From NCBI GenBank assembly GCA_045632165.1, contig JAZQWD010000082.1, positions 1 to 44,456 on the forward strand: 44,456 bases of DNA, in the 5' to 3' direction. The first letter of the stretch is position 1. Every line of letters starts with the position of its first letter. Of this stretch, positions 3,812-31,758 are shown piece after piece. The notes beneath the pieces were generated by a model, which saw only the letters and a list, made by a program, of their open reading frames with translations, did no database searches and had not been told where the DNA came from. This DNA is from Acutalibacteraceae bacterium. Lineage in GTDB: Bacteria; Bacillota; Clostridia; Oscillospirales; Acutalibacteraceae. The translations under genes were made by a program, and so were the position numbers.

Positions 3812-3834
3812 TATTTATAATTAAGGTGAATTAT

Positions 3835-10642: not shown

Positions 10643-11587
10643 TTAATTAAATATAAATTCACAAAATGCAATTTTCTTTCGTTTGTGGGTATAAACAATG
10701 TACGCTTTTTTACCCTTAGACACGATAGACGGATATGAAAATTCACCGTTTTCGGTTTCAAGGTCTAAGATTTTTTCAAAGGTTTTGCCATTATCATTTG
10801 ATAAAAACATCGTTAAGGGTGTTCGCTCTCCCCAATTTTTACCAATCGGGTTGCAAACCAATAAAAGCTTATCTTCAACCGTTACACAGTCGATACCACT
10901 GTTATTGTTTGGAATATCTATCGGATAGCATTGTGACCAGCTTTCACCATAATCAGCGGAATCACTACGGTATATGAAACCTTTGTTTGAACGAAGCAAG
11001 GCGTGAATATTGCCTTCTCCACTTGTCCATAAAGTTGGCTGAATAAGTCCAAGTCCTTCGTTATCACAAACGGGCATATCGCTTTTTTGCCATTTATCAC
11101 CGCTAAATATATCAACAAACGGCCGCCAAGCGCCCTGTTCGGTAGAAGCGGGCGCTAAAATTTTACCGTCAGCTAACCTTATTGGCTTGTTTTTAACGGG
11201 ACCGCGTCCACCAGAAGTGTCGTTTAACACCAATTCCCTAGCTTCAGACCAACTTTTGCCACCATCAAACGACTGCATAACATAGGTTTTCCAGTCGGAT
11301 ATTTTGTGGCCTACTTTATAAAAAAGCGTAAGGGTTTTGCCGTCGGGTGAGAATAAAACAGGGTTCCAATGAGGTATGCCATCGTTTGCAGTGAGCATTA
11401 TAGGCGCTTCCCAAATTTCATCCACACGGCGTGTAAACCAAATTGAAACGTCATCTTTTCCCTCTGCACTACCCGCAAACCAAGCGCTCGCTACAGTATT
11501 ATCATTAAGCACGACTACCGTTGCAGCGTGACATTGTGCAACGGTATCGTTAGTTTCAAATATAAATTGTTTATTAATTAAATCCAT
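10643..11587 (-). CDS. BNR/Asp-box sialidase-fold (BNR_2-like) beta-propeller protein, cytoplasmic
   Basis: Asp-boxes are SFDGGKSWS, SADYGESWS and SNDNGKTFE. There is no signal peptide and no F/YRIP motif. The gap to the upstream aldolase gene is 3 nt. Confidence 0.7.
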   Translation of the reverse strand: MDLINKQFIFETNDTVAQCHAATVVVLNDNTVASAWFAGSAEGKDDVSIWFTRRVDEIWEAPIMLTANDGIPHWNPVLFSPDGKTLTLFYKVGHKISDWKTYVMQSFDGGKSWSEARELVLNDTSGGRGPVKNKPIRLADGKILAPASTEQGAWRPFVDIFSGDKWQKSDMPVCDNEGLGLIQPTLWTSGEGNIHALLRSNKGFIYRSDSADYGESWSQCYPIDIPNNNSGIDCVTVEDKLLLVCNPIGKNWGERTPLTMFLSNDNGKTFEKILDLETENGEFSYPSIVSKGKKAYIVYTHKRKKIAFCEFIFN

Positions 11588-11590
11588 AAT

Positions 11591-12514
11591 TTAAAGCCAT
11601 TCCTTACGCAAACGGTTGGTAAGCGCAAAACGCTGTTCTAACTCGTAACGTTCGGCTTCTGAAACAATACCTTCAGGGCGCGCACGGGTAATGCATGCCT
11701 CAAAAGGTAGACCTTCTTTTTGAAGATATGCCTTTGCCGTAACAGGATAATTGCCATACGAAATACTTGAAAGTACACCTAATATATCCTGAAGCTCCTG
11801 AGCTTTTTCATAATCACCATTATCGGCAAGCTCCATAAGCTTTACGTAAAGGTCGGGATGATAGTTTGCCATAACACCGCAAAGACCTGCGGCGCCATCC
11901 TTAACGCTGTCGAGAAGTGTTGCGGAGTTTGCATTGAATATTTGAAATCTTGAACCCTTAACTGCCTCAAGTTTGGGCTTGATATCGGTAACTGAACAGC
12001 TTGTATCCTTCATAAACACAAATCGGTCGCTTTCAGCGCAAAAACGAAGCAATTCAGGGGATGCAAACTTTTGGTAAGGCACGGGGCATTCGTAAAGACC
12101 TAAATCTATATCGGGAATAGCCTTCATAACACTTTCCAAATTGCGTAAAATCACACTTTCATCATCGTTTTCTTCTGCTAAACGGCTTGTAATAAGCACC
12201 AAAGCCTTCGCACCTGTATCAGCCAAGGCTTTAAGCTCGTCGATACCCTTTGCGGTCGGAAGCATAGTATGTCCCGAAACAACAACATCCACACCCTTGG
12301 GTGCAGCTTCAACAGTGGTTTTTGAAATTAAAACTCTTTCTTCAAGCGAAAGACCAAAAATTTCACTTGAAAGACAGGAAGCAAAAATACCCTGACAGCC
12401 CTTATCGGCATACCATTGTGTCAATGCCTTAACACCGCCAACATCTACCCTGCCATCCTTGGTAAGTGGGGTAAGCATTGCGGGATAAATACCACGATTT
12501 ACAGTGTTTTTCAT
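11591..12514 (-). CDS. DHDPS/N-acetylneuraminate-lyase family class I aldolase, divergent clade
   Basis: By eye it aligns to DapA/NanA. AMLTPL matches the xxTP block, LYECP matches YN(I/V)P, and FMKDTS matches G(I/V)K(E/Q)(A/T)(S/T), which holds the Schiff-base Lys. The GxTGE block is replaced by CLSSE. Confidence 0.75.
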   Translation of the reverse strand: MKNTVNRGIYPAMLTPLTKDGRVDVGGVKALTQWYADKGCQGIFASCLSSEIFGLSLEERVLISKTTVEAAPKGVDVVVSGHTMLPTAKGIDELKALADTGAKALVLITSRLAEENDDESVILRNLESVMKAIPDIDLGLYECPVPYQKFASPELLRFCAESDRFVFMKDTSCSVTDIKPKLEAVKGSRFQIFNANSATLLDSVKDGAAGLCGVMANYHPDLYVKLMELADNGDYEKAQELQDILGVLSSISYGNYPVTAKAYLQKEGLPFEACITRARPEGIVSEAERYELEQRFALTNRLRKEWL

Positions 12515-12531
12515 AAAGCTATTTCTCCTTT

Positions 12532-13497
12532 TTATTCACCGGTAAGACCAGAACGTTCTATACCTTGTATAAATTGTTTTTGTAATAATGCGTATATAAG
12601 CAACACGGGAAGCACCACTATAAAGGTACCAGCCATTAAAACCGCGTTGTTAATTGTATTTGTGTCAGTAACACCATAATTGGTTTCCAAAACATCGGCG
12701 GAAAAAAGCCTCAAGGTGTCAGAAATGGCCTGTAAGCGCATAGAAAGCATTGCCATATCACTTTTATTAATGTACATGCTCGGCTCGAAGAAATCGCTCC
12801 AATGCCATACAAGTGCCAATACCAAAACCACGATATAAATTGAACGTGCAACAGGAAATACAATATACAAGAACGTGCGTATAAAGCCGCAGCCGTCAAC
12901 ACGGGCGGCTTCTTCGAGCTCACGCGGTTGACTTAAAAAGAATTGGCGGAAAATGTAAATAAACAATGCGCCCTTTAAGCCAAAACCAAAAAAAGCTGGT
13001 ATTGTAAGGGGAAAATATGTATTTAGCCAACCCATATTTGCATACAAAAGATATTGCGGAACAATTATTGTTTGAGGTGGTACAAGCATTGCCAAAATCA
13101 TAAAGAAAAATGCAAACTTGTGTCCAAAACTGTTATAGCGCGCTAAAGAATACCCCGCCATTGAACATGAGATTAACTGACCAAGCGTAGCAAGTGCAGT
13201 AACAAGCACCGTGTTTTTAATATTGTTCCAATAACCCATAATGGTTGCCGCCAGTTTATAATTGCTTAAATGAATACTGCGCGGTATCCACATTACAAGT
13301 GGGTTATTTAGGTCGGCATTACTTTTAATTGAGGTTATTACCATATAAAGAAACGGGTAAAGGAAAATGTAAGCCAAACCAAGCATTACAACATATAAAA
13401 GAACTTTAGGCAATATTTTGCAGACCTTCAGCCAAATATTATGCTTTGGCTTTAACAATGCAGCGCCACCCATGGTATGAAGTTTATTTATTTTCAT
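12532..13497 (-). CDS. Carbohydrate ABC transporter permease (CUT1, MalG-like), second pair
   Basis: It has multiple TM segments and the EAA loop LEEAARVDGCGFIRTFLYIVFPVARS. Confidence 0.85.
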   Translation of the reverse strand: MKINKLHTMGGAALLKPKHNIWLKVCKILPKVLLYVVMLGLAYIFLYPFLYMVITSIKSNADLNNPLVMWIPRSIHLSNYKLAATIMGYWNNIKNTVLVTALATLGQLISCSMAGYSLARYNSFGHKFAFFFMILAMLVPPQTIIVPQYLLYANMGWLNTYFPLTIPAFFGFGLKGALFIYIFRQFFLSQPRELEEAARVDGCGFIRTFLYIVFPVARSIYIVVLVLALVWHWSDFFEPSMYINKSDMAMLSMRLQAISDTLRLFSADVLETNYGVTDTNTINNAVLMAGTFIVVLPVLLIYALLQKQFIQGIERSGLTGE

Positions 13498-13503
13498 TAT
13501 AGC

Positions 13504-14388
13504 TTACCTCCCATACCCTTGGTTGTGTCGCACATAGCTACCGATTATAAGAATTATAAGACCGATAAGCACTAAAATAAACGCAAAATATACCCAACCC
13601 ATTGCCGAAGCATAGCCGTGCATACCGTATTTTATAGTCTGCTCAGAGATATACTCAAGCACCTGATTAGAACTGTCGGTAAATGAAGCAATAACCGTAT
13701 AAACCAAATTAAGCAGTACGATTGGCGAAACCATTGGAAGTGTAATTTTCCAAAAAATTTCATAAGCGTTTGCGCCGTCAATTTTTGCCGATTCATATAA
13801 TGCGGGTGAAATGCCAAGTATTGCCGACAAAAACAAAATTATTTGTACACTGCTTTGCCACAAAAGGCGAATAATTGAACTGAAAAGCATATCTAAAAGT
13901 TCTACAATACTGCTGCCAAGGTATAATAACCATTCACGCGGTATAATACTGCTGTTTGCAAGGGAAATAATTTGTTCATCAACACCCTGTGTCAAAAGCT
14001 GTGTCATTACCTCACCCGTACCAAGCACAAAGGGTAAAATAAATGCCACACGAAAAAAACCTTTACCACGGTCGATTTTACTTAACATAACCGCCAAAAT
14101 AAGTGAAAAAATCACTATTAAGGGTGAATTAATAAGTGTAGACTTAATAACCTCTAACAACCTTGGTACAAAATTTACATCTTCAAAAAACGCTTTTTTA
14201 TAATTTCCAAAGCCCTCAACTAAAATTGAAAAGCCAGTTTTGGTGGGATCTAAATCACCAAAGCTTAAAAGCAATGAAGAAATAACAGGAAATAGAAAAA
14301 ATATGCAAATACCTATCAAAAATGGTGACAGGTAAAACAAGCCTATAAGCTTATCCTTTGTTTGCCTTGAAATTTTTATTTGTTTCAT
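13504..14388 (-). CDS. Carbohydrate ABC transporter permease (CUT1, MalF-like), second pair
   Basis: It has the EAA loop LYESAKIDGANAYEIFWKITLPMVSP and the typical N-terminus LFYLSPFLIGICIFFLFPV. Confidence 0.85.
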   Translation of the reverse strand: MKQIKISRQTKDKLIGLFYLSPFLIGICIFFLFPVISSLLLSFGDLDPTKTGFSILVEGFGNYKKAFFEDVNFVPRLLEVIKSTLINSPLIVIFSLILAVMLSKIDRGKGFFRVAFILPFVLGTGEVMTQLLTQGVDEQIISLANSSIIPREWLLYLGSSIVELLDMLFSSIIRLLWQSSVQIILFLSAILGISPALYESAKIDGANAYEIFWKITLPMVSPIVLLNLVYTVIASFTDSSNQVLEYISEQTIKYGMHGYASAMGWVYFAFILVLIGLIILIIGSYVRHNQGYGR

Positions 14389-14416
14389 AAAACAAAGCTT
14401 TCTCCTTTCCTGTTAT

Positions 14417-16618
14417 TTATGCCGCCAATACAACATAATTTCTTGACGGTACGGTCTTACCTAAGATTTGAGTATCGGTATTACCGTAATTAATTAAAAC
14501 CTTATAACCGTTTTCGTATGTTAATGTAACCACATCGCCGTTACGCTCGTGCATAACTATAGACTGACCAATAACGTCATTTAAGCGACTGCTCATATCC
14601 TTATAAATCTTAAGCGCACGGTCTCCCCATTTGCTAAACTGACTTGAAAATAGCTTGTTATAGCTTGTATCAATAAGCTTTTTAGGACTGTTTTCAGTTA
14701 ATTCAAAGTAAGGCATAGCGCTGTGCTCTATCCACTGTAGACAAAGTAGCTGCAAATCGCCTGACTGATTACCTGCCGTTGTAGTATGGGGAATAACACC
14801 GCTTATAATCATTGAATACCAAGGTATTGCTTCATCGGTCATTTGTTGCATTGAACAAGTCATAGGAATATCATAAACCTGATTAACCGAAGAAAGCATA
14901 TATAAGTTACCGCCCTGACTAGCTGTAACATTTTTATTTTGGCTCATTTCTTGCCATAAAACCATTGTGTCGGTACGGGTAACTGTGCGTGACTTACTGT
15001 AATCGGGATAAACCTTACTACCAACCGACGCCAATGCAATTTCAATCGAATTATACTTTTTAAGCTTAGCAAGTGCACCATTCAACTTGTTTTTAGATAC
15101 TATAGGTGATAAAAGGTAAGCATCCTCGTCTTCGTTTGTAATCGGCATGGTTGATTCCTTAACCGCAACATAACGGTTTTTAGCCGATTCTAAAAGTTCA
15201 ATTTCAAGCAATACATTAAATCTGCTGTCCTTTTTAGCTAGGGCAGAAAGTTTTTTAAGTCCGCCGTTACCGCCTAATTGCGATGCCGGCTTAAAGGATT
15301 TATTAGCCGAAGCATAGCCACCCTTGTTCCAGCCGCGAAGTCTTACCTGAAGGTTTTGAACACCGTCATTTAAAAGGTCTTGACTTATACTTTCAACATA
15401 GTCGAAGCTAGTCATTTCAACAAAGGGGTTAATTAAGGCATTTTGCTTTTCAATACCCATAAACATATTAAGGTAAAGCCCCATTGTGTCAACCGAATTA
15501 TTTTCATTAACAAGCTTATTTGAAACCAAATAGTCACGGTAAGCATTTGCCATACCACTGTAATTTGCCTTGTCATCACGCAAAAGGAAATATGTAACCT
15601 CGCGGTCAAGGGGCAATGGCTTTTCATCAACCTTTACACCAAAGGTTTCATCACCGCCTACAGTACCCGTAATGCTTGATAAAAAGATTTTATACTCATT
15701 GCGGTATACCATTTCAAAGCCCGCACGGTGAATGGGAATTTCCGAATTTGAAACAGCGGTATTAACATTAATACGAGCGCTTTCGCTACCCTTTGTAATA
15801 GCTGCCATAATGCCTAAATCATTATTTTTAATGCCATAAATTGGCAACATTGCGGTTGCCGGCTTATCCTCTTCCAAAATTGTTTCAAGGTTAAGTGTAT
15901 CATAAATATCTAAGGCAATTGCCTGTGTATAGGCATGCTTTTCATCCGCTCTGTCAAAATAACTGATAGCACCGCTACCGTCGGGATAAACTATATAGCC
16001 GTCAGCATTACTAGCACTAGTTACAGCACTGAAAAATGGCAAAACATCAACCGATTTAATAACAAAATCGCCATTTTCTTTTATATCCTTTGAAGGAATA
16101 CTTGCAATAATACGTTCACCGTCTAATTTAATTTCAAGTGCCATTGTCACATCAATAACCTTAAAATCAATTTCAAATCGAATACCATTTTCAAACGAGA
16201 AAGCCTTTATACTATTAAAACCTTCAGCGGAATAGCTTTTCATATTGTTTGCGCGTGTTGCGTCACGCGCAATATAATTCACCGACAAAGCTGACTGCAT
16301 ATAGGACTTCCAAAGATTTGAAACTTCCTCCATACTGCCATAATTTTCTTCGGTCATGCCTGAAAACCACAAATGCTCATTTGTGTTAGCATCTGCAATA
16401 CAAAATATGTTACTTTGCGGATTTAACAATAATGAATAAAAAGAATTACGGCAAATTTCTATATAATTATCGCCCTGCTCAGCTATAGGGGCATACCTTA
16501 CACTTTCTACGGGCGCCTTAGCCATACCGTTAAGGCTTGATGCCTGAGTTGGTAATACCACAACCGCTAAAAGAACTGTCAAAACTATAGCAACACAGCG
16601 AACGTAACGGTTAAACAT
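14417..16618 (-). CDS. Secreted 733-aa protein of unknown function (possibly DUF5696-type; family name from memory only)
   Basis: The signal peptide is MFNRYVRCVAIVLTVLLAVVVLPTQA/SS. I recognise no catalytic motif. The gene lies between the NHL-Yip1 gene and the second permease pair. The coding call is strong (2.2-kb ORF with tight spacing), but the functional call is weak. Confidence 0.5.
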   Translation of the reverse strand: MFNRYVRCVAIVLTVLLAVVVLPTQASSLNGMAKAPVESVRYAPIAEQGDNYIEICRNSFYSLLLNPQSNIFCIADANTNEHLWFSGMTEENYGSMEEVSNLWKSYMQSALSVNYIARDATRANNMKSYSAEGFNSIKAFSFENGIRFEIDFKVIDVTMALEIKLDGERIIASIPSKDIKENGDFVIKSVDVLPFFSAVTSASNADGYIVYPDGSGAISYFDRADEKHAYTQAIALDIYDTLNLETILEEDKPATAMLPIYGIKNNDLGIMAAITKGSESARINVNTAVSNSEIPIHRAGFEMVYRNEYKIFLSSITGTVGGDETFGVKVDEKPLPLDREVTYFLLRDDKANYSGMANAYRDYLVSNKLVNENNSVDTMGLYLNMFMGIEKQNALINPFVEMTSFDYVESISQDLLNDGVQNLQVRLRGWNKGGYASANKSFKPASQLGGNGGLKKLSALAKKDSRFNVLLEIELLESAKNRYVAVKESTMPITNEDEDAYLLSPIVSKNKLNGALAKLKKYNSIEIALASVGSKVYPDYSKSRTVTRTDTMVLWQEMSQNKNVTASQGGNLYMLSSVNQVYDIPMTCSMQQMTDEAIPWYSMIISGVIPHTTTAGNQSGDLQLLCLQWIEHSAMPYFELTENSPKKLIDTSYNKLFSSQFSKWGDRALKIYKDMSSRLNDVIGQSIVMHERNGDVVTLTYENGYKVLINYGNTDTQILGKTVPSRNYVVLAA

Positions 16619-16654
16619 TCTTTAAATCGTCCTTTCCGAAAAATTTTGCAATAA

Positions 16655-18784
16655 CTATATAACAAATTGCGCTTCAATAATAATATCATTTACAAGTTGA
16701 ACGAGACATACAACCAAGGAATAAGCAAACAAAGCAACAAACCATATTAAAACAACCGCAACTAAGGTAACAAGGCAAACCGCTATTGTATGACCCAAAG
16801 TATAGTCGTTCAAATGCCTTACTGCGCGGAACAACAACCAAATCATCCAAATAGTTACACCGTTTACTAAAACGGCATAGAAGCCTGTTTCATTCCAACA
16901 CATAACCTGTGAAAACAAGTCTGCAAGTAAGGTAACTAAAATGTATGGTATTAAAGTAAATCCGCCTGCAATAAAGTTTTGCTTTAATGTAGATTCACCA
17001 TCAAACTGCGCTGAAATTAGAAAAACTGCGCCTATCCAAGTAAGAATTGGTAAAAGAAGCTTTACAAATTCCAAAAACAAGTTCATTTCATCAGGATCAA
17101 TATCCTGCATAGGATAATGCACCGTAAACACAAAGAAGATTCTAACAGCAAAGGCCAGAATAACAAGCACAGCAGGTACAGCCACACTAATACGACCTCT
17201 GTTATACTTTATAGCTTCAAATGTGCGAACGGGATGATTTAAAATATTCATACCAAAAAGCAGACTATCCTTAAAGCCAAGGGTATGCTTTCGGCCAAGT
17301 TCAAAATCAACCAAAACCTTTTTTGAAGAACCCATAACAAGCCTAAGTCCAACCACTAAGGCCACCGCAAAAGCAATTACTATAAGAGCGATAAGCCAAA
17401 AGTTTTGCTTTATTATTTCATAACGAAACTCCGAAAAAGCTTTTGAATATTCCAATCGGTCTTCGGAATATTTGAAATGCTCCATAGCGGTTTTCCAGTC
17501 CCCCGCCTTCATAGCGGTTAGACCCGCACCGAAGTGTGTCATAGGATAGGTTTCATCAATTTCAAGCACCGCTTTCCATAAAGCGTCAGCTTCCTCATAT
17601 TTGCCTTCGTTATAGGCAATGGTTGCTTTTTGTACTGTTGTGATAAAATTAGAAGGCTCTAATACCGTAATATTACCGTAGCTTTGGTCCAGAACATACA
17701 AGCGACCTTCATCATCCACTACCATAGATGACGGTAGATAGAATTCACCCTGATCAGTACCCTTGCCACCAAATACTGCAAGCAGATTTCCTTGCGCATC
17801 GTACTGATAAATTTTACAGGTATTGGCCTCGATAACAGTTACCGTACCATTTTTGTCAACGCAAATGTCGGCAAATATAGCAGGCATACCTTCTTCGGTA
17901 ACCTCACCGTAGGTAAAGCTTTTAGACTGAATATTACCGCTAAACAAACGGCTTACAAGGGTTTTAATGGCTTGCCAATCGTTAGCAAGTGTGCCGACCT
18001 TGCGATAAATATTATTACCAACAGTGTTTAAAACCTTAATTTGTCCTTCTTGAGTATCACGGCTAACAGCATAAATCATACCGCGGCTGTCAAGACAAAA
18101 ATTAGTGTAGGGGTCAGCGTTACGCTTTTCAATACTTTGCTTTTGTACATCAGATGCCACAAGGCGTAAAAGCCAGTCAGTAAAGTCAAAACCAATATCG
18201 GACTGACCAATAAAACCGCGGAAGGTATTTTGGCTGTCCAAAAGCATTATATTTTCTCCCATAAGTACATAAACCGCACCTGTGGCAGACATACCGATTT
18301 TAGTAGGTGAATAGGTTTGAACGTCCGAAAGCATGGGTGATTCAGGCATACCGTATGTATTAACAGTTTCACCCTTTGGATTTAACTGAACAATGCGCGA
18401 ATTGCCCGTATCGCTTATATAAAGGTCGCCCGTTTCGGAAACAAAAACACCCTGTGGTTCGTTAAATGCTATGCCGTCGCTTTCGGTAATTTGTGCTACA
18501 AATTCACCTTTTTTTGTCATTTTAACCACACGGTTATTTTTAGTATCAGCCACATATAAATAACCCTGATTATCCAAGAACAAGTCGGTCGGTTGGTTAA
18601 AATGGCTTATTTCACCATTATTTGTAACGGTGTTAATACTGTACGAATAGTCATACACTTCCGGTATTGCTATAATTTCGCCGTTATTAATCGTATAATT
18701 CGTTTCCTTTGCCGATACTGTAACCGAAAACAGTAACGAAAGTATACAAAGCAAAACTATAACCCTGCTTATTCGTTTCTTCAT
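16655..18784 (-). CDS. Exported NHL-repeat beta-propeller, TPR-like linker and C-terminal Yip1-type polytopic membrane domain, fused in one protein
   Basis: NHL-like blades include FNQPTDLFLDNQGYLYVADTKNNRVVKMTKKGE, FNEPQGVFVSETGDLYISDTGNSRIVQLNPKGE and FYLPSSMVVDDEGRLYVLDQSYGNITVL. A TPR-like stretch is YNEGKYEEADALWKAVLEID...AMKAGDWKTAMEHF. About 6 hydrophobic helices follow in the last 250 aa. I prefer the ATG at 18784 (MKKRISRVIV..., GGAAAGGA RBS) over the track start at 18808. Confidence 0.65.
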   Translation of the reverse strand: MKKRISRVIVLLCILSLLFSVTVSAKETNYTINNGEIIAIPEVYDYSYSINTVTNNGEISHFNQPTDLFLDNQGYLYVADTKNNRVVKMTKKGEFVAQITESDGIAFNEPQGVFVSETGDLYISDTGNSRIVQLNPKGETVNTYGMPESPMLSDVQTYSPTKIGMSATGAVYVLMGENIMLLDSQNTFRGFIGQSDIGFDFTDWLLRLVASDVQKQSIEKRNADPYTNFCLDSRGMIYAVSRDTQEGQIKVLNTVGNNIYRKVGTLANDWQAIKTLVSRLFSGNIQSKSFTYGEVTEEGMPAIFADICVDKNGTVTVIEANTCKIYQYDAQGNLLAVFGGKGTDQGEFYLPSSMVVDDEGRLYVLDQSYGNITVLEPSNFITTVQKATIAYNEGKYEEADALWKAVLEIDETYPMTHFGAGLTAMKAGDWKTAMEHFKYSEDRLEYSKAFSEFRYEIIKQNFWLIALIVIAFAVALVVGLRLVMGSSKKVLVDFELGRKHTLGFKDSLLFGMNILNHPVRTFEAIKYNRGRISVAVPAVLVILAFAVRIFFVFTVHYPMQDIDPDEMNLFLEFVKLLLPILTWIGAVFLISAQFDGESTLKQNFIAGGFTLIPYILVTLLADLFSQVMCWNETGFYAVLVNGVTIWMIWLLFRAVRHLNDYTLGHTIAVCLVTLVAVVLIWFVALFAYSLVVCLVQLVNDIIIEAQFVI

Positions 18785-18814
18785 ACCGAAAAATCCTTTC
18801 CGTTGCATTCCTAA

Positions 18815-19735
18815 TTATCCCTTAATACCAGAATGCACCATAGTTTGCATAACCTTTTTTTGCGAAATCATAAATAAAATAACCGTAGGTAGAGTCATAA
18901 GTAAGGTTGCCGCTGCAACCGCACCCGCACGTCCAATTGTGGCCGAGCCGCCCGAAATTGTATTAAGGGCAAGAGGTAAAGTTTTTAAAGCCTGGTCATT
19001 AAGATAAATTAACGGTGAGAAATAATCATTCCACGAGCTTACAAAGCTAAACACCATTAAGGTGGACCAAGCCGGTGTAAGTAAAGGCATTATAATCTGC
19101 CAATAAATACGCATTTCGCCACAGCCGTCAATACGCGCAGCTTCAATAAGCGTATTTGGAATTTGTTCAACAAACTGTTTTACAAGGAAAAAGTTATATG
19201 CCGTTGCAATTGAGGGAATGATAAGCGCCCAATAACTATTTATAAGCCCAACCGAATTAATAATTAAATAACGCGGTATTTGTGTAACAAAGGGCGATAT
19301 CATAAGCGCTGCCAAAATTATTTGAAACCATAGCTTACTTCCCGGTGGGTTGTGCTTGACCATACCATAAGCACCAAGTGTGCTTACAACAATGGTACCG
19401 GTAACCGTGCCAATTGTGACTAAAGCGCTGTTAAACACATAACGTGAAAAAGGCACCGCCGAGCTCGACATAGACAGTAGCAAATCGCTAAAGTTTTTTA
19501 AGGTTGGGTTACGCACAAAAAATTGCGGCGGAAATATAAATAATTCACTAAGGGGTTTGAAGGCGGTGCTTACCAAATAAACCAAGGGTAACATGGTAAA
19601 GCTAACCACCAATATCATTAAAGCATATACCGCGGCCCACGCGCCTTTTGAACGCAAGCGCGCTGCGGAAAGTGGGCGTTTTCTTTTAAATGTTGCCATT
19701 TCTTTTACCATCTTTCCATCATTATTCGCTTTCAC
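18815..19735 (-). CDS. Carbohydrate ABC transporter permease (CUT1, MalG-like), first pair
   Basis: It has the EAA loop LIEAARIDGCGEMRIYWQIIMPLLTP. The start is uncertain: GTG 19735, ATG 19711 and ATG 19699 are all possible. With the GTG start it overlaps the upstream permease by 14 nt. Confidence 0.85.
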   Translation of the reverse strand: MKANNDGKMVKEMATFKRKRPLSAARLRSKGAWAAVYALMILVVSFTMLPLVYLVSTAFKPLSELFIFPPQFFVRNPTLKNFSDLLLSMSSSAVPFSRYVFNSALVTIGTVTGTIVVSTLGAYGMVKHNPPGSKLWFQIILAALMISPFVTQIPRYLIINSVGLINSYWALIIPSIATAYNFFLVKQFVEQIPNTLIEAARIDGCGEMRIYWQIIMPLLTPAWSTLMVFSFVSSWNDYFSPLIYLNDQALKTLPLALNTISGGSATIGRAGAVAAATLLMTLPTVILFMISQKKVMQTMVHSGIKG

Positions 19736-20636
19736 TCAAAGCGTGTGTTACCACACGGCCTACAATAAAGGTAATAAGGAACAATACCGTTGCCACAGCT
19801 GATGCGTAACCCATTTGGAAGCGGATAAACGCATAGTCATAAAGATGGGCAACTATGGTATGACCTGCATAGCTCGGGCTTGGTAAACCCGAAACCGAAA
19901 CTGCAACATCAAAAGCGCCAAATGCATTTGTAACTGCAGTAATTGCACCAAAAAGAAGCTGCGGCTTCATTTGTGGCAGGGTTAAATATTTAAGCTCTTG
20001 AAAACGGCTTTTAACACCGTCAATTGCGCCCGCCTCGTAAAGCGATTTATCAACATTTTGAAGACCTGCCAAGAACACAAGGAAGCCTGTACCCATACTC
20101 ATCCAAACCGAAATTATAATAATAACGGGCAATATGGTTTTAGGGTTTTGCGTCCATAAAACAGGATCGTCAATAAGTCCCATGCTGATGAGCACATTAT
20201 TAATTAAGCCATATTGGTCGGATGAGAAAAAGTAAAGCCAAACCGAGCTCATAGCAACACCGCTTGTAATAGATGGTGCATAAAATGCCAAAGCAAAAGC
20301 GTTGCGCATTTTTAGTTGGTTTAAAACCCAAGCCACAAAAAAGCTCATTAAATAACCGACAGGGCCAACAATTACTGCAAAAATCAAGGTGTTTTTCATT
20401 GCGGTCCAAAATACCGAATCATCAACAAGCATAAGCTCGTAATTTTTAAGCCCAACAAAATGTGCTGTCTGAAACATATTATAGTCGGTAAAGCTTAAGC
20501 CAATAGCTATGGCCGCGGGGGCAAGTACAAATATTGTAAACAAAATTGCAAAAGGAAGTTGCATAGCGTAGCCAATCCAATTTTTGCGAACAAAGCGCAC
20601 TGCATTGGCTTTAAAACTGTTTTTTGATTTTGTCAT
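19722..20636 (-). CDS. Carbohydrate ABC transporter permease (CUT1, MalF-like), first pair
   Basis: It has the EAA loop LYEAGAIDGVKSRFQELKYLTLPQMKP. An AAAGGAGG RBS is present. Confidence 0.85.
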   Translation of the reverse strand: MTKSKNSFKANAVRFVRKNWIGYAMQLPFAILFTIFVLAPAAIAIGLSFTDYNMFQTAHFVGLKNYELMLVDDSVFWTAMKNTLIFAVIVGPVGYLMSFFVAWVLNQLKMRNAFALAFYAPSITSGVAMSSVWLYFFSSDQYGLINNVLISMGLIDDPVLWTQNPKTILPVIIIISVWMSMGTGFLVFLAGLQNVDKSLYEAGAIDGVKSRFQELKYLTLPQMKPQLLFGAITAVTNAFGAFDVAVSVSGLPSPSYAGHTIVAHLYDYAFIRFQMGYASAVATVLFLITFIVGRVVTHALSESE

Positions 20637-20651
20637 TTTGCAACCTCCTTT

Positions 20652-23582
20652 TTATTTTTTATTTGGTTTTACGTTGTATTCTTCTTGTTTGTTGCGTAGC
20701 TCACGGTTAATTTCCTTAACGGCATTTTCCAATGCATCACGGGGTGAAGACGCACCCGAAACAACAACGTCGGTAAAAGCGTTAGTAACATAACGACCCG
20801 TATAATAACCACCAAGCACTACAGGGGTTTCCTGTGCCCATTTCCATTGTTCTTGAATAACCGCAAGGTCGCCCTTGTTCCAGTCAAGCGATAAAAATGC
20901 ATTAACGTTTGCGGTATTCCAACGGGCTTCTACACCTACAAGCGCTTCCATTTCTCTTGCATAATCCATTTGGGTGGTTTCCTGACTCCACCACTTAAGG
21001 AATTCCCAACCCGCCTTATATTTGGGGTCGCGGTCGTTTTTAAGAAGCATATCACATTCGCCTGCAATACCGCCACATGAACGGTTTATACTGCCATCCT
21101 GTTGCTTGATACCCGGAAGCGGCGCAATAGCCCATTTACCGATAAGCTCGGGTGCCGAGGTGCAAAGCTGAATGTAAAGCGAATAGTTCCCCACGCCTAT
21201 TGGCATTTCACCTGTACGGAAACGGTTAAAGAAGTTTGCACTTACAGGCGAACTGTAATGGGTAAACATTTCGGTATATTCGCGGAATGCTAAGAATGCC
21301 TGTGGCGTATTAAGTGCCGAGGTATAGCCATCCTCACTGTAATAAGCACCGCCGTATTGATACAAAAACTGTGTAAAGTCCATATTTTGGTAATATGAGA
21401 GGCCGTTTTCAAACAACTGCGGTAAGGTATAGTCGTACAATTCCTGACGTGTATTGGGAAGCATTATGTTATACTTTTCAATTACATCGCTACGGTAGAA
21501 AAGACAACTGAAATTCATTGTTTCGGGCATAGCATAAACGCCGCCCTCGTATGTAAAGGGAGTAATAATTTGCGGAACAAAGCGTGATGCAATTTCCTTA
21601 TAATCGGAAAATTGTGTTAAATCTACTGCGGCATCACGAATTGCAAATTCAACAGGCGAGCCCGAAGCCACACCCATTGCCACGTCAGGCGCTGTGCCCG
21701 ACGTCATTGAAAGCATAAGCACGTTGGCGCTGCCCGCATTAAGCTGTGAAGCGGGTACAACGTTTACGTTTACTAAAATACCGGTTTTTGGGGTAAAGCT
21801 TTCGTCAGCCATTTCCTTAATTATTTCCGCCCATTCGTTACCGCGTGCAATCCAAACATCGATAGTTTCGGTGATTTCGGTATCCTCGCCTAAAATACCA
21901 CCAACGTTGTTATAGTCCTTAACAAAGGAAATAAGGAAGTTTTTAATTGTACTGCGAAGCTTTTGGAAGAAATTAGATTTTCTTACAGGTATTTTAACGT
22001 CGGCCGTAGCAACTGTAAATTCGTCAATAAGCAAGGGCTGTGACTGTAATTCAAGATACCACGAGCCAAGATTTGTTTGCGCTTGGGTAAGTTGGGAATA
22101 TTTTTTAGCGATGGAAAAGGGATTATCCCTCATTCTTTTCAGCTGTTGTATAATAGATATCAAGTTACTACCCATACTGGTCGATTTGCCTGAAATAGCA
22201 TAAATTCGGTCATACTGTTCCTGCAAATCAGTAATAAGACGGTTCATATCGTCTTCTAAAGTGGGAATAAACTTGAAAAATTGATAGTCATAGTTGGGGT
22301 CGGGGTCACTGCCTGTTAATTTTGTAATATCAAGCAGCATTTCCGACAAAATTGTCATATCGTCATAAAGGGTGTGTATAATATCAGTTAATTCACCCAT
22401 TGTGACAGTCATTGTCATTGTGTGAGGGCCTTCTTCAAGATAGAAAAGGTAGTCACCATTATCGTCACCCAAGGTAACGGTTTGCCAATCTGTGCTGTAA
22501 TCAAAGCAAATTGATTCGAGTTCACTAAATGGTATTTCATTATCGATTTTAATTGTACGGTAAGACGGAAGACCGTCATTCCAGGACTGCTTTACACGAA
22601 ATGCCATACGGTAAAGGCCTGTTTCTTTCACATTAAATTCATAAGTAATCAATTGATTACCCTGTCGCCAACGGTAACCGCCCACGGTATTAAATACACG
22701 GTATCCATAAGCTATAGGCTTAGTTTCGGGGTCGCCGTCACTTTCAAGACGAATGGTAGCATCGTTACGGTTTACCATACTGTCTTCTGCTTGAAATGTT
22801 AATAACTGCTCCTTAATTTGTGATTTAGGATATGAAGCCGAAACCTTCTGATAGCTTTCAACCGGTATGAATGGTTCAACTACCAATTCAGAAATTGCCA
22901 TATCCTGTGAAGCATAGCCAAGGGTTAAAGTATGTTCGCCTATAGTCAAGGGGAAAATTAGCGGCGTTGTATAAAAACCGCCACTATCGCGCAAATAATC
23001 CTGTTGCCAACAAGCTATCGTTTCAACCGAAGGGCGCACCTCATCACCGATACTGTTTACCCTAACCTCGCCCGAATCCTTGAACGAATGATAAAAAGGT
23101 ATTGTGTCAGCTTCAAAACAGGGTGTCTTGCCATCAATAAGTAAAGAGCGAACCGCCTTACTTCCCGAAGTCTCTAAAACTGTGTAATTGGCTTTTATTA
23201 TATACCAGCCTTCAGTATTAATGGTAAATTTCCATTGTATATCACCTGTTTTAGCATCGGATAGAATTGCCTTTTCAGCATTACCGTTAATATCACTTTT
23301 AAGGGTAATGCCATCTGCGGCGGACGCAGCCGCCGCAGATAAAACTACCTTGTCCGTACCTTTAACATACGGATTGTTTTTTAAAACCTCTGAAAGAAAG
23401 GGCGCGCGGGTTCCGTCATCACTTAGAGTAATGTTTGTGCTGTCACCTTTGTCGCCGACAGTCGCCGTATAGGCCTTATCCGCTGAAGCGGAAATTGATA
23501 CCATAGTCATTAGCATAGCAGCTACACAACCTACTGATATCAGGCGCCTTAGAAGAAAACGCCTTTCGGGACTTGCTTTCAT
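20652..23582 (-). CDS. Giant (976 aa) extracellular solute-binding protein: signal peptide, two CBM6/35-like beta-sandwich modules, a helical linker and a C-terminal family-1 SBP domain
   Basis: The signal peptide ends ...SISASA/DKA and has no lipobox. Two modules show the pattern WKFTINTEGWYIIKANY...LLIDGK...LTIGEHTLTLGY and ITYEFNVKETGLYRMAFRVKQ...IKIDNE...WQTVTL..LEEGPHTMTMTV, which is typical of galactose-binding-like CBMs. The last 400 aa or so look like a CUT1 SBP (...VWIARGNEWAEIIKE...YAMPETMNF...GKWAIAPLPG...). Confidence 0.7.
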   Translation of the reverse strand: MKASPERRFLLRRLISVGCVAAMLMTMVSISASADKAYTATVGDKGDSTNITLSDDGTRAPFLSEVLKNNPYVKGTDKVVLSAAAASAADGITLKSDINGNAEKAILSDAKTGDIQWKFTINTEGWYIIKANYTVLETSGSKAVRSLLIDGKTPCFEADTIPFYHSFKDSGEVRVNSIGDEVRPSVETIACWQQDYLRDSGGFYTTPLIFPLTIGEHTLTLGYASQDMAISELVVEPFIPVESYQKVSASYPKSQIKEQLLTFQAEDSMVNRNDATIRLESDGDPETKPIAYGYRVFNTVGGYRWRQGNQLITYEFNVKETGLYRMAFRVKQSWNDGLPSYRTIKIDNEIPFSELESICFDYSTDWQTVTLGDDNGDYLFYLEEGPHTMTMTVTMGELTDIIHTLYDDMTILSEMLLDITKLTGSDPDPNYDYQFFKFIPTLEDDMNRLITDLQEQYDRIYAISGKSTSMGSNLISIIQQLKRMRDNPFSIAKKYSQLTQAQTNLGSWYLELQSQPLLIDEFTVATADVKIPVRKSNFFQKLRSTIKNFLISFVKDYNNVGGILGEDTEITETIDVWIARGNEWAEIIKEMADESFTPKTGILVNVNVVPASQLNAGSANVLMLSMTSGTAPDVAMGVASGSPVEFAIRDAAVDLTQFSDYKEIASRFVPQIITPFTYEGGVYAMPETMNFSCLFYRSDVIEKYNIMLPNTRQELYDYTLPQLFENGLSYYQNMDFTQFLYQYGGAYYSEDGYTSALNTPQAFLAFREYTEMFTHYSSPVSANFFNRFRTGEMPIGVGNYSLYIQLCTSAPELIGKWAIAPLPGIKQQDGSINRSCGGIAGECDMLLKNDRDPKYKAGWEFLKWWSQETTQMDYAREMEALVGVEARWNTANVNAFLSLDWNKGDLAVIQEQWKWAQETPVVLGGYYTGRYVTNAFTDVVVSGASSPRDALENAVKEINRELRNKQEEYNVKPNKK

Positions 23583-23596
23583 AAAATTTCATCCTT

Positions 23597-24871
23597 TCAG
23601 ATAATGTCAGTTAATTTAACACGTGTTAATTCCATAACTTCTTTTTGTTTAGAATAGAAAATATACATATAATCGTCCTGAATTAAAACTTCAGGATAAG
23701 CATAATAACCGTTCTTTGCCCAGCCGCTTTGCTGAAGCTCGTACTTTTCGTCACGCAAGATATATTCACGGTCCCAGTTATAGCCGTCGTCAGAAATTTG
23801 AAGAACTAACGGATAGCGGTTAGAGCCATAGCGTGAGGTGCCTACAAAATAGAAACGACCGTCGGGCAAGCGACCAAAGTTAGCCATTGTAGCTTCGGTT
23901 GCAAAGTTTGTGGGGTAAACGTCGGTAAAGGTTTCGCCGTTGTCATAGCTTTCGGTCATCCAAATGCGATTGGTGTCACTGCGTATCATAACGTGAATAA
24001 CATAATCGTCGGTTTGATACCAAGAAGCTTCTTGAAGAATATTTGCGCCACGGTCAAAACCTGACTGCTCCTGTTCTTTGGTTAAGCGGCCCACCTTCCA
24101 CATAAGCGAGCCGATATCATCGGTGTATATAACACCTGTACCCGCGCCCGCAAAATAACGGCCTGTAAGCGATTTCTTAGGTGATTCGTTAGCGCCTATA
24201 GAGACAACTGCGGGTTTACTCCAGGTTTTGCCATCGGTAGTGGATACAACCTTTGAAACGTATTTATAATACTTAATAATTTGCTTTATCCAGGTACCGT
24301 CAGCGCGGAAGTTATCAGGACCAAAATGAGCTTCACGATAATAGTAATAAAGCTTATTGGGAGTTGATACGAAAAATCCGCCCTGGTTTGCAGTCATACC
24401 AAAACCGCCGTCAACCGAAGGTCCTACAACTACCGGCTTGCTCCAATTATAAAAATCAGACGAGCTTGAAATTACAACAGATTGACCGGGAGAATCCTCG
24501 TCCTTAGCTGCCTGACCCCAAGCGGCATAAAACTTACCCTTAAAGTAAGCAAAGCCCGGTTGATGCTTAAAGCCGTTTTCTGACTCAAAATCAGAAACGA
24601 CAACCTTTTCTGAAGCAATTTTTTTGCTGTTTTTAAGCGCCTTTGAATTATCAACCTTTACAGCCGACTGCTGTATTGTAAGCTTTGGTGTAACAGGAAA
24701 TGTATCCTTCCATTCTTCGGGATTATATGTAACGGTAGAGCCCGAAGGTGTATCCGATGGATTATCGCCATTTGAGCCCGAAGAATTACCGCCGCAGCCC
24801 GCCAATGCCGATAACACTAAAATCATTGCCAGTCCGCGAAGCGCCACGCCTTTAAAACTAATAGGTTTCAT
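23597..24871 (-). CDS. Surface lipoprotein with a BNR/Asp-box sialidase-fold beta-propeller
   Basis: The lipobox is LSALAGC, followed by a Gly/Ser/Asn-rich linker. Asp-boxes are STTDGKTWS, SYDNGETFT, ISDDGYNWD and a degenerate SSSDFYNWS. No F/YRIP motif is present. I prefer ATG 24871 (MKPISF...) because the track GTG at 24880 lies inside a GAAAGGTGA RBS. Confidence 0.7.
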   Translation of the reverse strand: MKPISFKGVALRGLAMILVLSALAGCGGNSSGSNGDNPSDTPSGSTVTYNPEEWKDTFPVTPKLTIQQSAVKVDNSKALKNSKKIASEKVVVSDFESENGFKHQPGFAYFKGKFYAAWGQAAKDEDSPGQSVVISSSSDFYNWSKPVVVGPSVDGGFGMTANQGGFFVSTPNKLYYYYREAHFGPDNFRADGTWIKQIIKYYKYVSKVVSTTDGKTWSKPAVVSIGANESPKKSLTGRYFAGAGTGVIYTDDIGSLMWKVGRLTKEQEQSGFDRGANILQEASWYQTDDYVIHVMIRSDTNRIWMTESYDNGETFTDVYPTNFATEATMANFGRLPDGRFYFVGTSRYGSNRYPLVLQISDDGYNWDREYILRDEKYELQQSGWAKNGYYAYPEVLIQDDYMYIFYSKQKEVMELTRVKLTDII

Positions 24872-24886
24872 TATTTTCACCTTTCT

Positions 24887-26410
24887 TTAAGAATTACATT
24901 CCTTAAGAATTTCTTCAACGCCAAGTTTTTTCATTTCAGCTAAGAAGCTGTCAAATTCGGTAAGGCTGCGTGTGCCCTTAACAAATTTGATAATTTGTTG
25001 CTTAGCATAGGTGTTAATAGTATCGTAACGGGCAATCTTTTCGATACCAATATCAGGCTTGGTTTCACGCTTAGTTTCAAAGTTGCCTGCTTCAAAGTCC
25101 TTATCGTAAATATTAGCGTATTTCTTATCTAATTCATCTGTTTCATAATCTTCCCAAACAACACCCATATTATCATAGAAAGGCGCGAAGCAAAGCTGAC
25201 CAAGGCCTAAATCAGACATCCACTGATAGTTGGGCTGTGCAGCCTTTTCGTACTTCTTCCAAACAGACTTCGGAACATAAGGGTTGCCGTCCTTGTCAAG
25301 CTTATAGGTTTCGTCAAGCTTACCGTAAGTGTTGATAAGCATAGCTTCTTCAGAATAGCACCAGTCCATAAATTCTAAAAGTCTGTCGGGATATTTTGCC
25401 TTTGCGCTAAGGCAGTACTGAGTACCATAGTTGGTAAGCTGTGTCCAAGCAAGACCTTCCTTCTTGCCAAAAGAGTTGGTCATAAGGGGTAATGAGTTAA
25501 TGGTTGCATAGGGGTTAGTTTTTCTTAACTGTTCGGTTTGCATACTTGCAAGCACGCCGTTGTCTATCCAGAAGAAAACGTTGCCTGCCTGTACCTTCTT
25601 TTCAAAGCTGCTAGAGTCTGACATATCAAACTTGGGGTCAAGAATACCTTCGTTATAGGTTCTGATCATAAACTGTAATACGGTACGGAATTCTTCTTCC
25701 ATAACACCGCTTACATATTTTTTAGAATCCTCATCATAATGGATAAGGTAGTTCATACCTAAAGCCTGTGTCCAGTATTCAAGCAAATAACTACCAGAGC
25801 GGGTTGCAAAAGGTGTGCTGTTGGGATAAAGCTTTTTAAGCTTTTTCATAGTTTCAAACCATTCATCCCAAGTTTTAGGTGCTTTAAGATTATGGTTATC
25901 AAGTGTATCGTAACGGATAGCTAATTGCAAAGGGGTATCGGGATAATCGATATGGTGTAAACCAAATCCTAAATATTTGCCGTCAACCTTAGTGGATTCA
26001 AGACCTTCAATATCCTTAGTAAGCTTCCAATAATTAGGGGTCTTCTCTTCCATAATATTTGTAAGGTCCATAAACAAAGCACTGTTAAAGGTTTGAAGCT
26101 CGGAATGGGTGAGCATTGTAATATCATACATTTGACCCGATGCGTTTGCCGCAGCAAGCTTGGTTTGTGCTTCAGTACCTACACCGATATCAACGTCAAG
26201 CGTTACGCCTGTTGCTTCAGTAATAAGATTCCACTTCATAGCATCTGTTTTAATGGGCTGATATACGTGTTCCTTTAAAAATACGGTATAGGTTACGGGC
26301 TTGTCGGTATAAGCCGCAGTGTTGCTGCCACCCTTTTCTCCACCGCCGCAGCCTGCAAAAATGCAAGCAACCAAGCACATAGCTAAAACTATCGAAAGTA
26401 TTCGTTTCAT
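24887..26410 (-). CDS. Extracellular solute-binding lipoprotein (large family-1 SBP, about 507 aa)
   Basis: The lipobox is IFAGCGG. The size and composition are typical of Firmicute oligosaccharide SBPs. An AGGAG RBS is present. Confidence 0.8.
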   Translation of the reverse strand: MKRILSIVLAMCLVACIFAGCGGGEKGGSNTAAYTDKPVTYTVFLKEHVYQPIKTDAMKWNLITEATGVTLDVDIGVGTEAQTKLAAANASGQMYDITMLTHSELQTFNSALFMDLTNIMEEKTPNYWKLTKDIEGLESTKVDGKYLGFGLHHIDYPDTPLQLAIRYDTLDNHNLKAPKTWDEWFETMKKLKKLYPNSTPFATRSGSYLLEYWTQALGMNYLIHYDEDSKKYVSGVMEEEFRTVLQFMIRTYNEGILDPKFDMSDSSSFEKKVQAGNVFFWIDNGVLASMQTEQLRKTNPYATINSLPLMTNSFGKKEGLAWTQLTNYGTQYCLSAKAKYPDRLLEFMDWCYSEEAMLINTYGKLDETYKLDKDGNPYVPKSVWKKYEKAAQPNYQWMSDLGLGQLCFAPFYDNMGVVWEDYETDELDKKYANIYDKDFEAGNFETKRETKPDIGIEKIARYDTINTYAKQQIIKFVKGTRSLTEFDSFLAEMKKLGVEEILKECNS

Positions 26411-26441
26411 AATAAAGCTCCTATCATATATTTTTCATAAT

Positions 26442-26478
26442 GCAGGAAAAGCAATACCTTGCCTTTCCTGCTTTTTTT
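26442..26478. other. Intercistronic stem-loop between the repeat-protein gene and the SBP gene
   Basis: The stem is 13 bp with one G-U pair: gcaggaaaagcaa (26442-26454) pairs with ttgcctttcctgc (26459-26471) around a 4-nt loop. The T7 run (26472-26478) follows the hairpin only on the plus strand. The surrounding genes are transcribed on the minus strand, where the hairpin is preceded by A7 and not followed by a U-tract. Confidence 0.4.
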
Positions 26479-26488
26479 AGTATTACTT

Positions 26489-30646: not shown

Positions 30647-30667
30647 ATTTACGCCTCCTATTTTAAT

Positions 30668-31630: not shown

Positions 31631-31688
31631 ATCAAATTCACTCCCCCATCGTTATTTTATTCAAATATACCATATTTTCGCAAAAAAG

Positions 31689-31703: not shown

Positions 31704-31710
31704 ACTAATG

Positions 31711-31739: not shown

Positions 31740-31758
31740 TGCACTTGAGGTGAAAGAT

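Follow-up and report, generated by a model that had tools for sequence, protein, structure and literature searches.

We analyzed a stretch of 44,456 nucleotides (nt) from an Acutalibacteraceae bacterium (GenBank assembly GCA_045632165.1, contig JAZQWD010000082.1, positions 1 to 44,456 of the forward strand), referred to here as the window. The subject of this work is the protein encoded by the open reading frame (ORF) at 16655..18808 on the minus strand (717 amino acids (aa), stop codon at 16655–16657), which consists of a signal peptide, a six-bladed NHL beta-propeller, approximately 2 TPR-like repeats, a linker membrane helix, and a five-helix Yip1 domain, and which we call NHL-Yip1. Its gene belongs to a series of 17 minus-strand genes with short gaps that runs from 31630 down to 7662. 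In gene order, it is preceded by a 507-aa lipoprotein solute-binding protein (SBP), a BNR_2 lipoprotein, a 976-aa SBP (the giant SBP), and the permeases A and B, and it is followed by a DUF5696 protein, the permeases C and D and, beyond these, a DHDPS-family lyase, a BNR_2 protein, YhcH, GH43, and an AraC regulator. NHL-Yip1 starts 6 nt after permease B and ends 36 nt before the DUF5696 gene.

The location of NHL-Yip1 between 2 permease pairs of ATP-binding cassette (ABC) transporters, which an earlier reading of the window from its sequence (the original prediction) had pointed out, was confirmed. All 4 permeases are encoded on the minus strand and match the Pfam family BPD_transp_1. Upstream lie permease A (19722..20636), a MalF-like importer subunit with the coupling motif EAG-AIDG that occupies a conserved position, and the MalG-like permease B (18815..19735, motif EAARIDG). 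Downstream lie permease C (13504..14388, motif ESAKIDG), a divergent MalF-like protein that matches BPD_transp_1 at 28 bits, and the MalG-like permease D (12532..13497, motif EAARVDG). Because the EAA-x-DG motif for coupling to the ATPase, in the form E[AS][AG]x[IV]DG, is intact in all 4 proteins, we consider them to be 2 genuine importer pairs. No ABC_tran (ATPase) domain was found among the scanned ORFs of the 44-kb window, despite the presence of 4 permeases and 2 binding proteins. An ATPase encoded away from the locus is usual for transporters that share an ATPase of the MsmK/MsiK type, and we assume that the energizing ATPase is such a shared subunit encoded elsewhere. Pfam scans of the window ORFs detected no MacB/FtsX or HlyD-type protein among the neighbors of NHL-Yip1. 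Scanning positions 12000–31800 for promoters (64 against 52 ± 7 in shuffled sequence) and terminators (24 against 21 ± 5) gave counts that were not above expectation, and therefore no internal transcription signals can be claimed within this region.

Architecture of NHL-Yip1

Hydropathy analysis of NHL-Yip1 showed a signal peptide and 6 membrane helices, 1 in the linker and 5 in Yip1. The signal peptide (aa 1–33; 18710..18808, minus strand, as are all the domains below) contains a hydrophobic stretch at aa 13–31 followed by VSA|KE, in agreement with the claim of a signal peptide in the original prediction. The true start of the protein is probably not the ATG at 18808 but the second ATG (codon 9, Met9), located 24 nt downstream at 18784, because a ribosome-binding site (AAAGGA) 8 nt upstream is better placed there than at 18808 and because the homologues are approximately 709 to 712 aa long versus 717 aa for the longer ORF. 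An AlphaFold2 model of the protein built on a 46-sequence family alignment (predicted local distance difference test (pLDDT) 86.6, predicted template modeling score (pTM) 0.75) has strands at aa 38–385, 5 helices at aa 387–468, a long helix at aa 470–503, and the Yip1 helices up to the C-terminus.

The region following the signal peptide (aa 34–386; 17651..18709) is an extracellular six-bladed NHL beta-propeller according to Pfam, the AlphaFold2 model, Foldseek, and profile comparison. The Pfam NHL family (PF01436) matched with an E-value of 4.2e-19 and 68 bits against a cut-off of 20, with 2 stretches passing individually. The NHL-type motifs on which the claim of NHL-like blades had been based are indeed present, as LYVADTKNNRVVKM at aa 83–96 and LYISDTGNSRIVQL at aa 128–141. 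The pLDDT is approximately 90 across the blades, and in Foldseek the propeller aligned to the six-bladed NHL domains of TRIM71, Lin41, Thin, and Brat with target TM-scores of 0.76 to 0.80. When the profile of the 46-sequence family was compared with NHL structures, E-values down to 1e-42 were obtained for natural proteins, and the best natural bacterial sequence match was the NHL sensor domain of PknD (1rwi, E 7.7e-34). The propeller carries 2 inserts: one at aa 201–232, which forms 2 helices and is conserved and gap-free across the family, and one at aa 273–310, which is variable and modeled with low confidence. The conserved positions of the propeller are mainly those of the NHL repeat motif, and the family conservation analysis revealed no conserved histidine or residues of the metal-ligand type in this domain. 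No carbohydrate-binding family was matched by NHL-Yip1 in the Pfam scan.

The propeller is followed by a membrane-proximal helical stalk of the TPR type (aa 387–468, 5 helices; 17405..17650). On the single sequence, the Pfam family TPR_2 reached 24.7 bits at aa 394–420, just under the cut-off of 27. The family profile matched consensus TPR proteins with an E-value of 4.9e-33, in line with the short TPR-like region of the original prediction. In the AlphaFold2 model the stalk helices are paired, form at most approximately 2 TPR repeats, and continue straight into the linker transmembrane helix (aa 469–503, hydrophobic core aa 470–488; 17300..17404), which is predicted by hydropathy, in line with the split homologues described below, to run from the outside to the cytoplasm. 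A cytoplasmic linker and the Yip1 five-helix membrane domain (aa 504–717; 16658..17299) complete the protein. The Pfam Yip1 family (PF04893) matched with an E-value of 5.9e-12 and 46.2 bits against a cut-off of 28.6, profile positions 2–172 of 173 aligning to aa 521–692, and thus the NHL and the Yip1 assignments were both supported. The 5 hydrophobic helices of Yip1 are located between aa 542 and 693; the earlier count of approximately 6 Yip1-type transmembrane helices was thus right in number, but one of them is the linker helix and only 5 belong to Yip1. Conserved residues of the Yip1 region are P526, G604, P621, S633, E640, W654, and E712, and the propeller, TPR, and Yip1 regions are conserved to about the same degree. 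The loop after the first membrane helix is rich in K/R while the predicted outward-facing loops are acidic or uncharged, a pattern expected if the propeller and the TPR repeats are outside and the start of Yip1 is inside.

NHL-Yip1 occurs in fused and split forms

A homologue search with NHL-Yip1 in a collection of 5.8 billion proteins yielded more than 100 full-length homologues of approximately 700 aa, with identities down to 23% and nearly all from Clostridia metagenome bins; the few that are named carry the label "YIP1 family protein". The same search returned forms of approximately 480 to 500 aa that do not contain Yip1, and in their loci a separate Yip1 gene encoding approximately 205 aa is located directly downstream. 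Among the 52 loci found with NHL-Yip1 (see below), the protein is split within the cytoplasmic linker in 19, with a Yip1 gene of approximately 205 to 220 aa, and split forms occur in about half of the related loci, so that the fused and the split state are about equally common. The break point corresponds approximately to residues 483–521 of the query. The first gene of the split pair encodes an NHL-TPR protein that ends in a membrane helix and a K/R-rich tail, and the second opens with the conserved, HP-containing start of Yip1. When only the Yip1 part was searched exhaustively with phmmer in a set of 1.84 billion representatives (threshold E ≤ 1e-3), 895 clusters were obtained, of which the best 150 fall mostly into 2 length classes, approximately 200 to 215 aa and approximately 680 to 730 aa; a word-indexed search with this part returned only 4 fragments. 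The fusion is thus one of 2 common states of a two-part unit, and the description of the protein as an unusual fusion did not hold within its family. That both states are common is good evidence for a joint action of the ectodomain and the Yip1 bundle.

The seven-gene cassette is conserved in Bacillota

To the 8 loci obtained through exact-protein look-ups, a scan of one genome per species with the 18 closest NHL-Yip1 sequences added 44, which gave the 52 loci found with NHL-Yip1. In every one of them with enough flanking sequence, the same cassette was present in the order giant SBP, permease A, permease B, NHL-Yip1 (fused or split), DUF5696, permease C, and permease D. The only variations in order were found in locus L037, in which the first trio has moved behind the others, and in loci L006, L007, and L041, in which there is 1 permease on each side. 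The latter 3 loci come from biogas or anaerobic-digester metagenomes and represent a reduced form of the cassette that keeps the giant SBP, NHL-TPR, and Yip1 and has a shorter DUF5696 protein (632 aa).

The same association was observed from the opposite direction. A metagenome scan with the DUF5696 profile detected at least 506 relatives; 80 loci selected through DUF5696 were kept, and the genes upstream were counted only in those with at least 2.6 kb of upstream sequence. NHL-TPR and Yip1, fused or split, were immediately upstream of DUF5696 in all 50 of these, including loci L092 and L096–L098. Two permeases followed DUF5696 directly in 55 of the 62 metagenome loci with room downstream, and the giant SBP and permeases A and B were present upstream in nearly all DUF5696-selected loci with approximately 7 kb of upstream sequence. 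Even 3 distant DUF5696 homologues (26% to 33% identity), one of them from Caldanaerobius fijiensis DSM 17918, are located directly after NHL-TPR and Yip1. This synteny, found from both search directions, rules out that the gene lies next to the transporter genes by chance and shows strict co-conservation with them. It also extends the conserved unit beyond that of the original prediction by the DUF5696 protein and the SBP of approximately 970 aa with its N-terminal extension of approximately 530 aa.

Median identities to the window proteins across the loci were 64% for permease A, 60% for permease B, 49% for the giant SBP, 47% for permease D, 43% for permease C, 39% for NHL-Yip1, and 32% for DUF5696. 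That the giant SBP is better conserved than the accessory proteins was surprising. All named carriers of the cassette are Bacillota (Oscillospiraceae, Candidatus Avimonas, Acutalibacteraceae, Ruminococcaceae, Lachnospiraceae, Anaerocolumna, Paenibacillus, and Caldanaerobius), and the window itself is 89% identical to the Oscillospiraceae metagenome-assembled genome (MAG) SIG584. Some genomes contain 2 to 4 divergent cassettes, in fused and split forms (L019, L024, L028, and L029 in MAG DAOSDD01; L034 and L043; L014 and L037), and each of these paralogous cassettes has its own copy of NHL-Yip1. Such multiplicity suggests an expansion for different substrates, as occurs with polysaccharide-utilization loci. 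The flanking genes vary by locus, with sialidase-like and lyase genes in the relatives of the window, GH38 and SASA genes in another locus, and GH95 and GH141 genes in a third. Behind the cassettes of Paenibacillus contaminans (L040) and P. solisilvae (L008) lie genes for a histidine kinase of the YesM/YesN type, a response regulator of the AraC type, and another SBP, and no other carbohydrate-active enzyme was found near these 2 cassettes. Our literature search retrieved no paper describing the cassette, none linking Yip1 with NHL and ABC permeases in bacteria, none linking "YIP1 family protein" with SBPs, and no mention of DUF5696.

The DUF5696 protein and the giant SBP

The DUF5696 protein (733 aa; 14417..16618, minus strand) matches PF18952 with an E-value of 4.7e-130, begins with an N-terminal signal or anchor helix, and is always encoded immediately downstream of NHL-Yip1. 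Its AlphaFold2 model (pLDDT 89.3, pTM 0.88) shows a three-domain fold resembling those of GH129, GH101, and GH36. The best Foldseek matches were DagB (5opq), a GH129-like 3,6-anhydro-D-galactosidase (E 5e-31, TM-scores 0.63/0.69), and the GH129 enzyme NagBb (5wzn, 8e-27), followed by GH101, GH36, and GH31 proteins. Comparison of the DUF5696 profile with single sequences also detected NagBb (1.2e-6) and DagB (5e-5). The protein thus has the fold of GH129 (beta-sandwich, TIM-barrel, and beta-sandwich) together with detectable GH129 homology. The catalytic nucleophile of GH129 is an aspartate, D435 in NagBb and D486 in DagB (PMC5698469). In an alignment stretch of low confidence, D486 of DagB corresponds to a variable column of DUF5696 (A530/S531 in the protein of the window; of 39 sequences, 14 have E and the others A, S, or G). 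Of the acidic residues of DUF5696, E181, D213, and E631 are invariant and D595 and D621 nearly so. DUF5696 may be either a new glycosidase family whose catalytic residues have shifted or a binding module without activity.

The giant SBP (976 aa; 20652..23582, minus strand), which is part of the cassette in the related loci, matches SBP_bac_8 at aa 594–876. Its sugar-binding domain is of the CUT1 type and spans approximately aa 565–960, with a match to Lin1841 over aa 571–882 (6e-14). The N-terminal extension of approximately 530 aa gave no Pfam or PDB sequence match and is conserved in the related cassettes. A tandem duplication of 2 binding domains was ruled out by hhalign, which gave a probability of 0.1 when the N-terminal half was compared with the C-terminal half. 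Across the loci, the N-termini of the giant SBPs are signal-peptide-like or single anchors and mostly do not contain a lipobox, and the copy in the window has no canonical lipobox either. The second binding protein of the window, a 507-aa lipoprotein of the SBP_bac_1 family (24887..26410, minus strand, lipobox FAGC), is encoded near the cassette in many related loci but not in all, and it is a candidate partner for the second permease pair. A lipobox is also present in the BNR_2 lipoprotein encoded next to it.

Discussion

The genes described above place a Yip1 domain within a sugar importer operon. In eukaryotes, Yip1 and Yif1 serve in Golgi/ER trafficking and have Rab GTPases as interaction partners. 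NHL-Yip1 shares with them the Pfam family, the five-helix membrane domain, and a cytoplasmic N-terminus of this domain, but bacteria have no Rab GTPase partners, no Rab-type partner is encoded in the locus, and the eukaryotic function can therefore not be transferred to NHL-Yip1. To our knowledge, the only bacterial Yip1 protein that has been studied is YknW. Bacterial Yip1 proteins are thus not wholly uncharacterized, although the original prediction had called them essentially so: YknW of Bacillus subtilis and B. amyloliquefaciens is the Yip1-family fourth component of the ABC transporter YknWXYZ and is reported to associate with YknXYZ and to modulate its assembly (PMC4887032, PMC4338810). 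Of the systems compared, YknW is the nearest precedent, and NHL-Yip1 would resemble it most in its mode of action. Like NHL-Yip1, YknW is a Bacillota membrane protein of the Yip1 family (PF04893) encoded inside an ABC transporter operon, a likeness drawn from the Pfam family. Unlike NHL-Yip1, it is a small protein that does not have an extracellular propeller or TPR repeats, and it belongs to a MacB-type exporter that includes a membrane-fusion protein and acts against the SDP toxin, whereas the neighbors of NHL-Yip1 are importer permeases and SBPs. NHL-Yip1 is for this reason not part of a YknW-type system.

The importer genes themselves resemble CUT1-type systems (MalEFGK2-like transporters and the Lin1841 sophoro-oligosaccharide system) in the EAA-x-DG permeases, the CUT1-type binding domain, the ATPase that is not encoded locally, and the glycan-degrading neighbors. 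However, known CUT1 systems comprise 1 SBP and 2 permeases, whereas the cassette comprises 4 permeases, an SBP of approximately 970 aa, an NHL-TPR-Yip1 protein, and a GH129-like exoprotein in a fixed order.

We tentatively favor the view that NHL-Yip1 is a dedicated, non-catalytic accessory or scaffold subunit of a composite ABC machine for oligosaccharide import. We infer that NHL-Yip1 physically associates with other cassette products, which of them are its partners, and that it is not a catalyst. Several observations argue for a scaffold. The Yip1 module is kept in every case, although the protein already possesses a single helix as an anchor. The 3 regions of the protein are about equally conserved and the two-helix insert of the propeller is gap-free, and conservation in the propeller falls mainly on positions of the NHL motif, with no histidine or metal-ligand set among them. 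The own copy of NHL-Yip1 in each paralogous cassette points to partner-specific interfaces, and the reduced variants with only 1 permease pair still keep both accessory genes. In addition, a Yip1-family protein, YknW, is reported to modulate the assembly of an ABC transporter. Finally, most giant SBPs do not have a lipobox and DUF5696 has only an N-terminal signal or anchor, so that both proteins need a means of staying at the transporter.

After cleavage of the signal peptide, the propeller and the TPR stalk of NHL-Yip1 are predicted to lie on the outer face of the membrane, with one helix crossing to the cytoplasm. If NHL-Yip1 is such a scaffold, the five-helix Yip1 bundle would be embedded beside the permeases, where it may dock laterally on the permease dimers in a manner comparable to YknW with YknXYZ. 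The TPR stalk and the propeller could then form an extracellular platform at the height at which binding proteins dock, and this platform might retain and position the giant SBP and the GH129-like DUF5696 protein over the transporter mouths. Glycan capture, any trimming, and uptake would in this way be coupled at the cell surface. Of the docking, sensing, and gating roles that had been offered for the protein, docking or scaffolding has the strongest support. With no output domain on its cytoplasmic side, NHL-Yip1 is unlikely to act in sensing by signal transduction.

Three points weigh against a scaffold. Some giant SBPs (L047, L048, and L052) have an N-terminal membrane anchor of their own, and tethering is thus not always needed. 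The YknW precedent concerns a MacB-type exporter and not a type I importer. Moreover, the conserved residues of the propeller could equally serve a conserved small ligand.

A wider form of this proposal, which we consider possible but rather doubtful, is that the cassette is a Gram-positive counterpart of the utilisome of Bacteroidota, a stable supercomplex of the cytoplasmic membrane in which Yip1 bundles would nucleate 1 or 2 importers and the ectodomain would hold the giant SBP and the GH129-like protein, as an enzyme or as an inactive binding module derived from one, over the permeases. Large glycans would in such a complex be hydrolyzed and taken up in physically coupled steps. The SusCD utilisome is a stable surface complex that joins glycan binding, a glycosidase, and a transporter, and its SusD component is built of TPR-like helices. 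The comparison is one of functional analogy and not of homology: the utilisome operates with an outer-membrane TonB-dependent transporter in diderm bacteria, whereas the cassette encodes permeases of ABC importers, which reside in the cytoplasmic membrane.

Beta-propellers often bind ligands on their top face, and this domain could serve in glycan capture at the surface, binding oligo- or polysaccharides like a lectin and handing them to the SBPs, with Yip1 as a mere anchor. The extracellular position of the propeller next to sugar transporters, its conserved aromatic residues (Y38, Y52, Y180, F196, Y246, Y336, and F346), and the separate copy of NHL-Yip1 in each paralogous cassette are all consistent with such a role. 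We nevertheless consider it unlikely: for anchoring, the existing single helix would suffice, but the five-helix Yip1 domain is always kept, even as a separate gene, and it has the conserved residues of its own listed above. In addition, the flanking enzymes vary widely among loci while the conserved positions of the propeller mostly belong to the structural motif of NHL repeats, and Pfam gave no match to a carbohydrate-binding family.

NHL-Yip1 could also be an assembly or stability factor that helps only transiently in the folding, insertion, or oligomerization of the permeases and the large exoproteins and that is not a stoichiometric subunit. TPR modules are common in chaperone-like adaptors, which would fit this role. 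YknW too is reported to affect the oligomeric state and assembly of YknX/YknYZ (PMC4338810). Genomic data cannot separate this model from that of a scaffold, but the strict conservation of one NHL-Yip1 per cassette, also in genomes with several copies, fits a specific and stable partner somewhat better, and we hold a purely transient role to be quite improbable.

Two further possibilities assign an activity to the propeller, and both appear very unlikely. As an extracellular enzyme, with a catalytic propeller like those of lactonases (SMP-30/SGL), virginiamycin B lyase, or peptidyl-hydroxyglycine lyase, it would modify the substrate before import; in Pfam, SGL (30.4 bits, cut-off 26.3, no single stretch passing) and Vgb_lyase (16.3 bits, cut-off 50) matched weakly, and streptogramin B lyase (2qc5) was among the Foldseek matches, which is compatible with this. 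However, the best matches in structure and sequence are to NHL domains that are not catalytic and to the PknD sensor, and there is no invariant set of histidines or metal ligands, the invariant D88, D133, and D374 being aspartates of the NHL motif. As a sensor or gate, the propeller would sense substrate outside the cell and the Yip1 bundle would allosterically open or close the permeases or signal to a regulator. The closest natural bacterial sequence match is indeed the extracellular sensor domain of a kinase, and in Mycobacterium tuberculosis PknD (PDB 1rwi) a six-bladed NHL propeller is likewise displayed outside the membrane, in a cell of the Gram-positive type, and tethered by a membrane helix. 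Moreover, conserved residues of the cytoplasmic loops of Yip1 (FDGE at aa 602–605 and NDY at aa 667–669) could contact the coupling region of the permeases or the ATPase. However, the propeller of PknD is coupled to a cytoplasmic Ser/Thr kinase, whereas NHL-Yip1 ends in the Yip1 bundle and offers on the cytoplasmic side, in place of an output domain, only a linker of approximately 50 aa, and the regulators of the loci are separate AraC-type proteins or two-component systems with SBPs of their own. A sensor kinase of the PknD type is ruled out because Pfam detected no kinase domain in NHL-Yip1.

ABC sugar importers of Gram-positive bacteria from gut and soil are usually pictured as 1 SBP, 2 permeases, and a shared ATPase. 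The cassette described here is a widespread alternative in Bacillota (Oscillospiraceae, Ruminococcaceae, Lachnospiraceae, Paenibacillus, and Caldanaerobius), with the metagenomic relatives counted above and up to 4 copies per genome, and it has 3 obligatory extra modules, namely the propeller-TPR-Yip1 protein, the GH129-like DUF5696 exoprotein, and the extension of the giant SBP. If these modules form a complex, this would explain how bacteria that do not have an outer membrane couple the processing of glycans at their surface to uptake, and bacterial Yip1 domains would gain a first mechanistic role in import. The role of the cassette can be tested directly, since its carriers include the cultured Paenibacillus contaminans CKOBP-6, P. 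eucommiae DSM 26048, P. solisilvae, and Caldanaerobius fijiensis DSM 17918.

Other genes of the window

Upstream of the cassette, the window encodes a 1385-aa protein (26489–30646, minus strand) in which a signal peptide is combined with a membrane anchor at the C-terminus that ends in KKKRA. This protein contains no LPXTG motif, and searches of Pfam, NCBIfam, and PDB sequences gave no match. Homologous ORFs are present upstream of the cassette in loci L009 and L016.

A group of genes for BNR_2 proteins, the DHDPS-family lyase, and YhcH is located at 23597–24880, 10643–11587, 11591–12514, and 10169–10627 on the minus strand and at 41948–43072 on the plus strand. The window encodes 3 sialidase-like BNR_2 proteins, one of which is a lipoprotein with a match to a BT_1020-like (GH143-type) propeller. 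The occurrence of these 3 proteins together with the lyase and YhcH suggests that this copy of the cassette may serve a glycan containing sialic-acid-like or other ulosonic acids (Kdo/DHA).

Two paralogous proteins of approximately 635 aa (3826–5736 and 36674–38581, both on the plus strand) contain DUF4964, DUF5127, and GtaA six-hairpin domains. Each adjoins GFO_IDH_MocA oxidoreductases, and TIM-barrel proteins resembling xylose isomerase additionally flank the first. The 2 regions look like 2 further sugar-processing modules.

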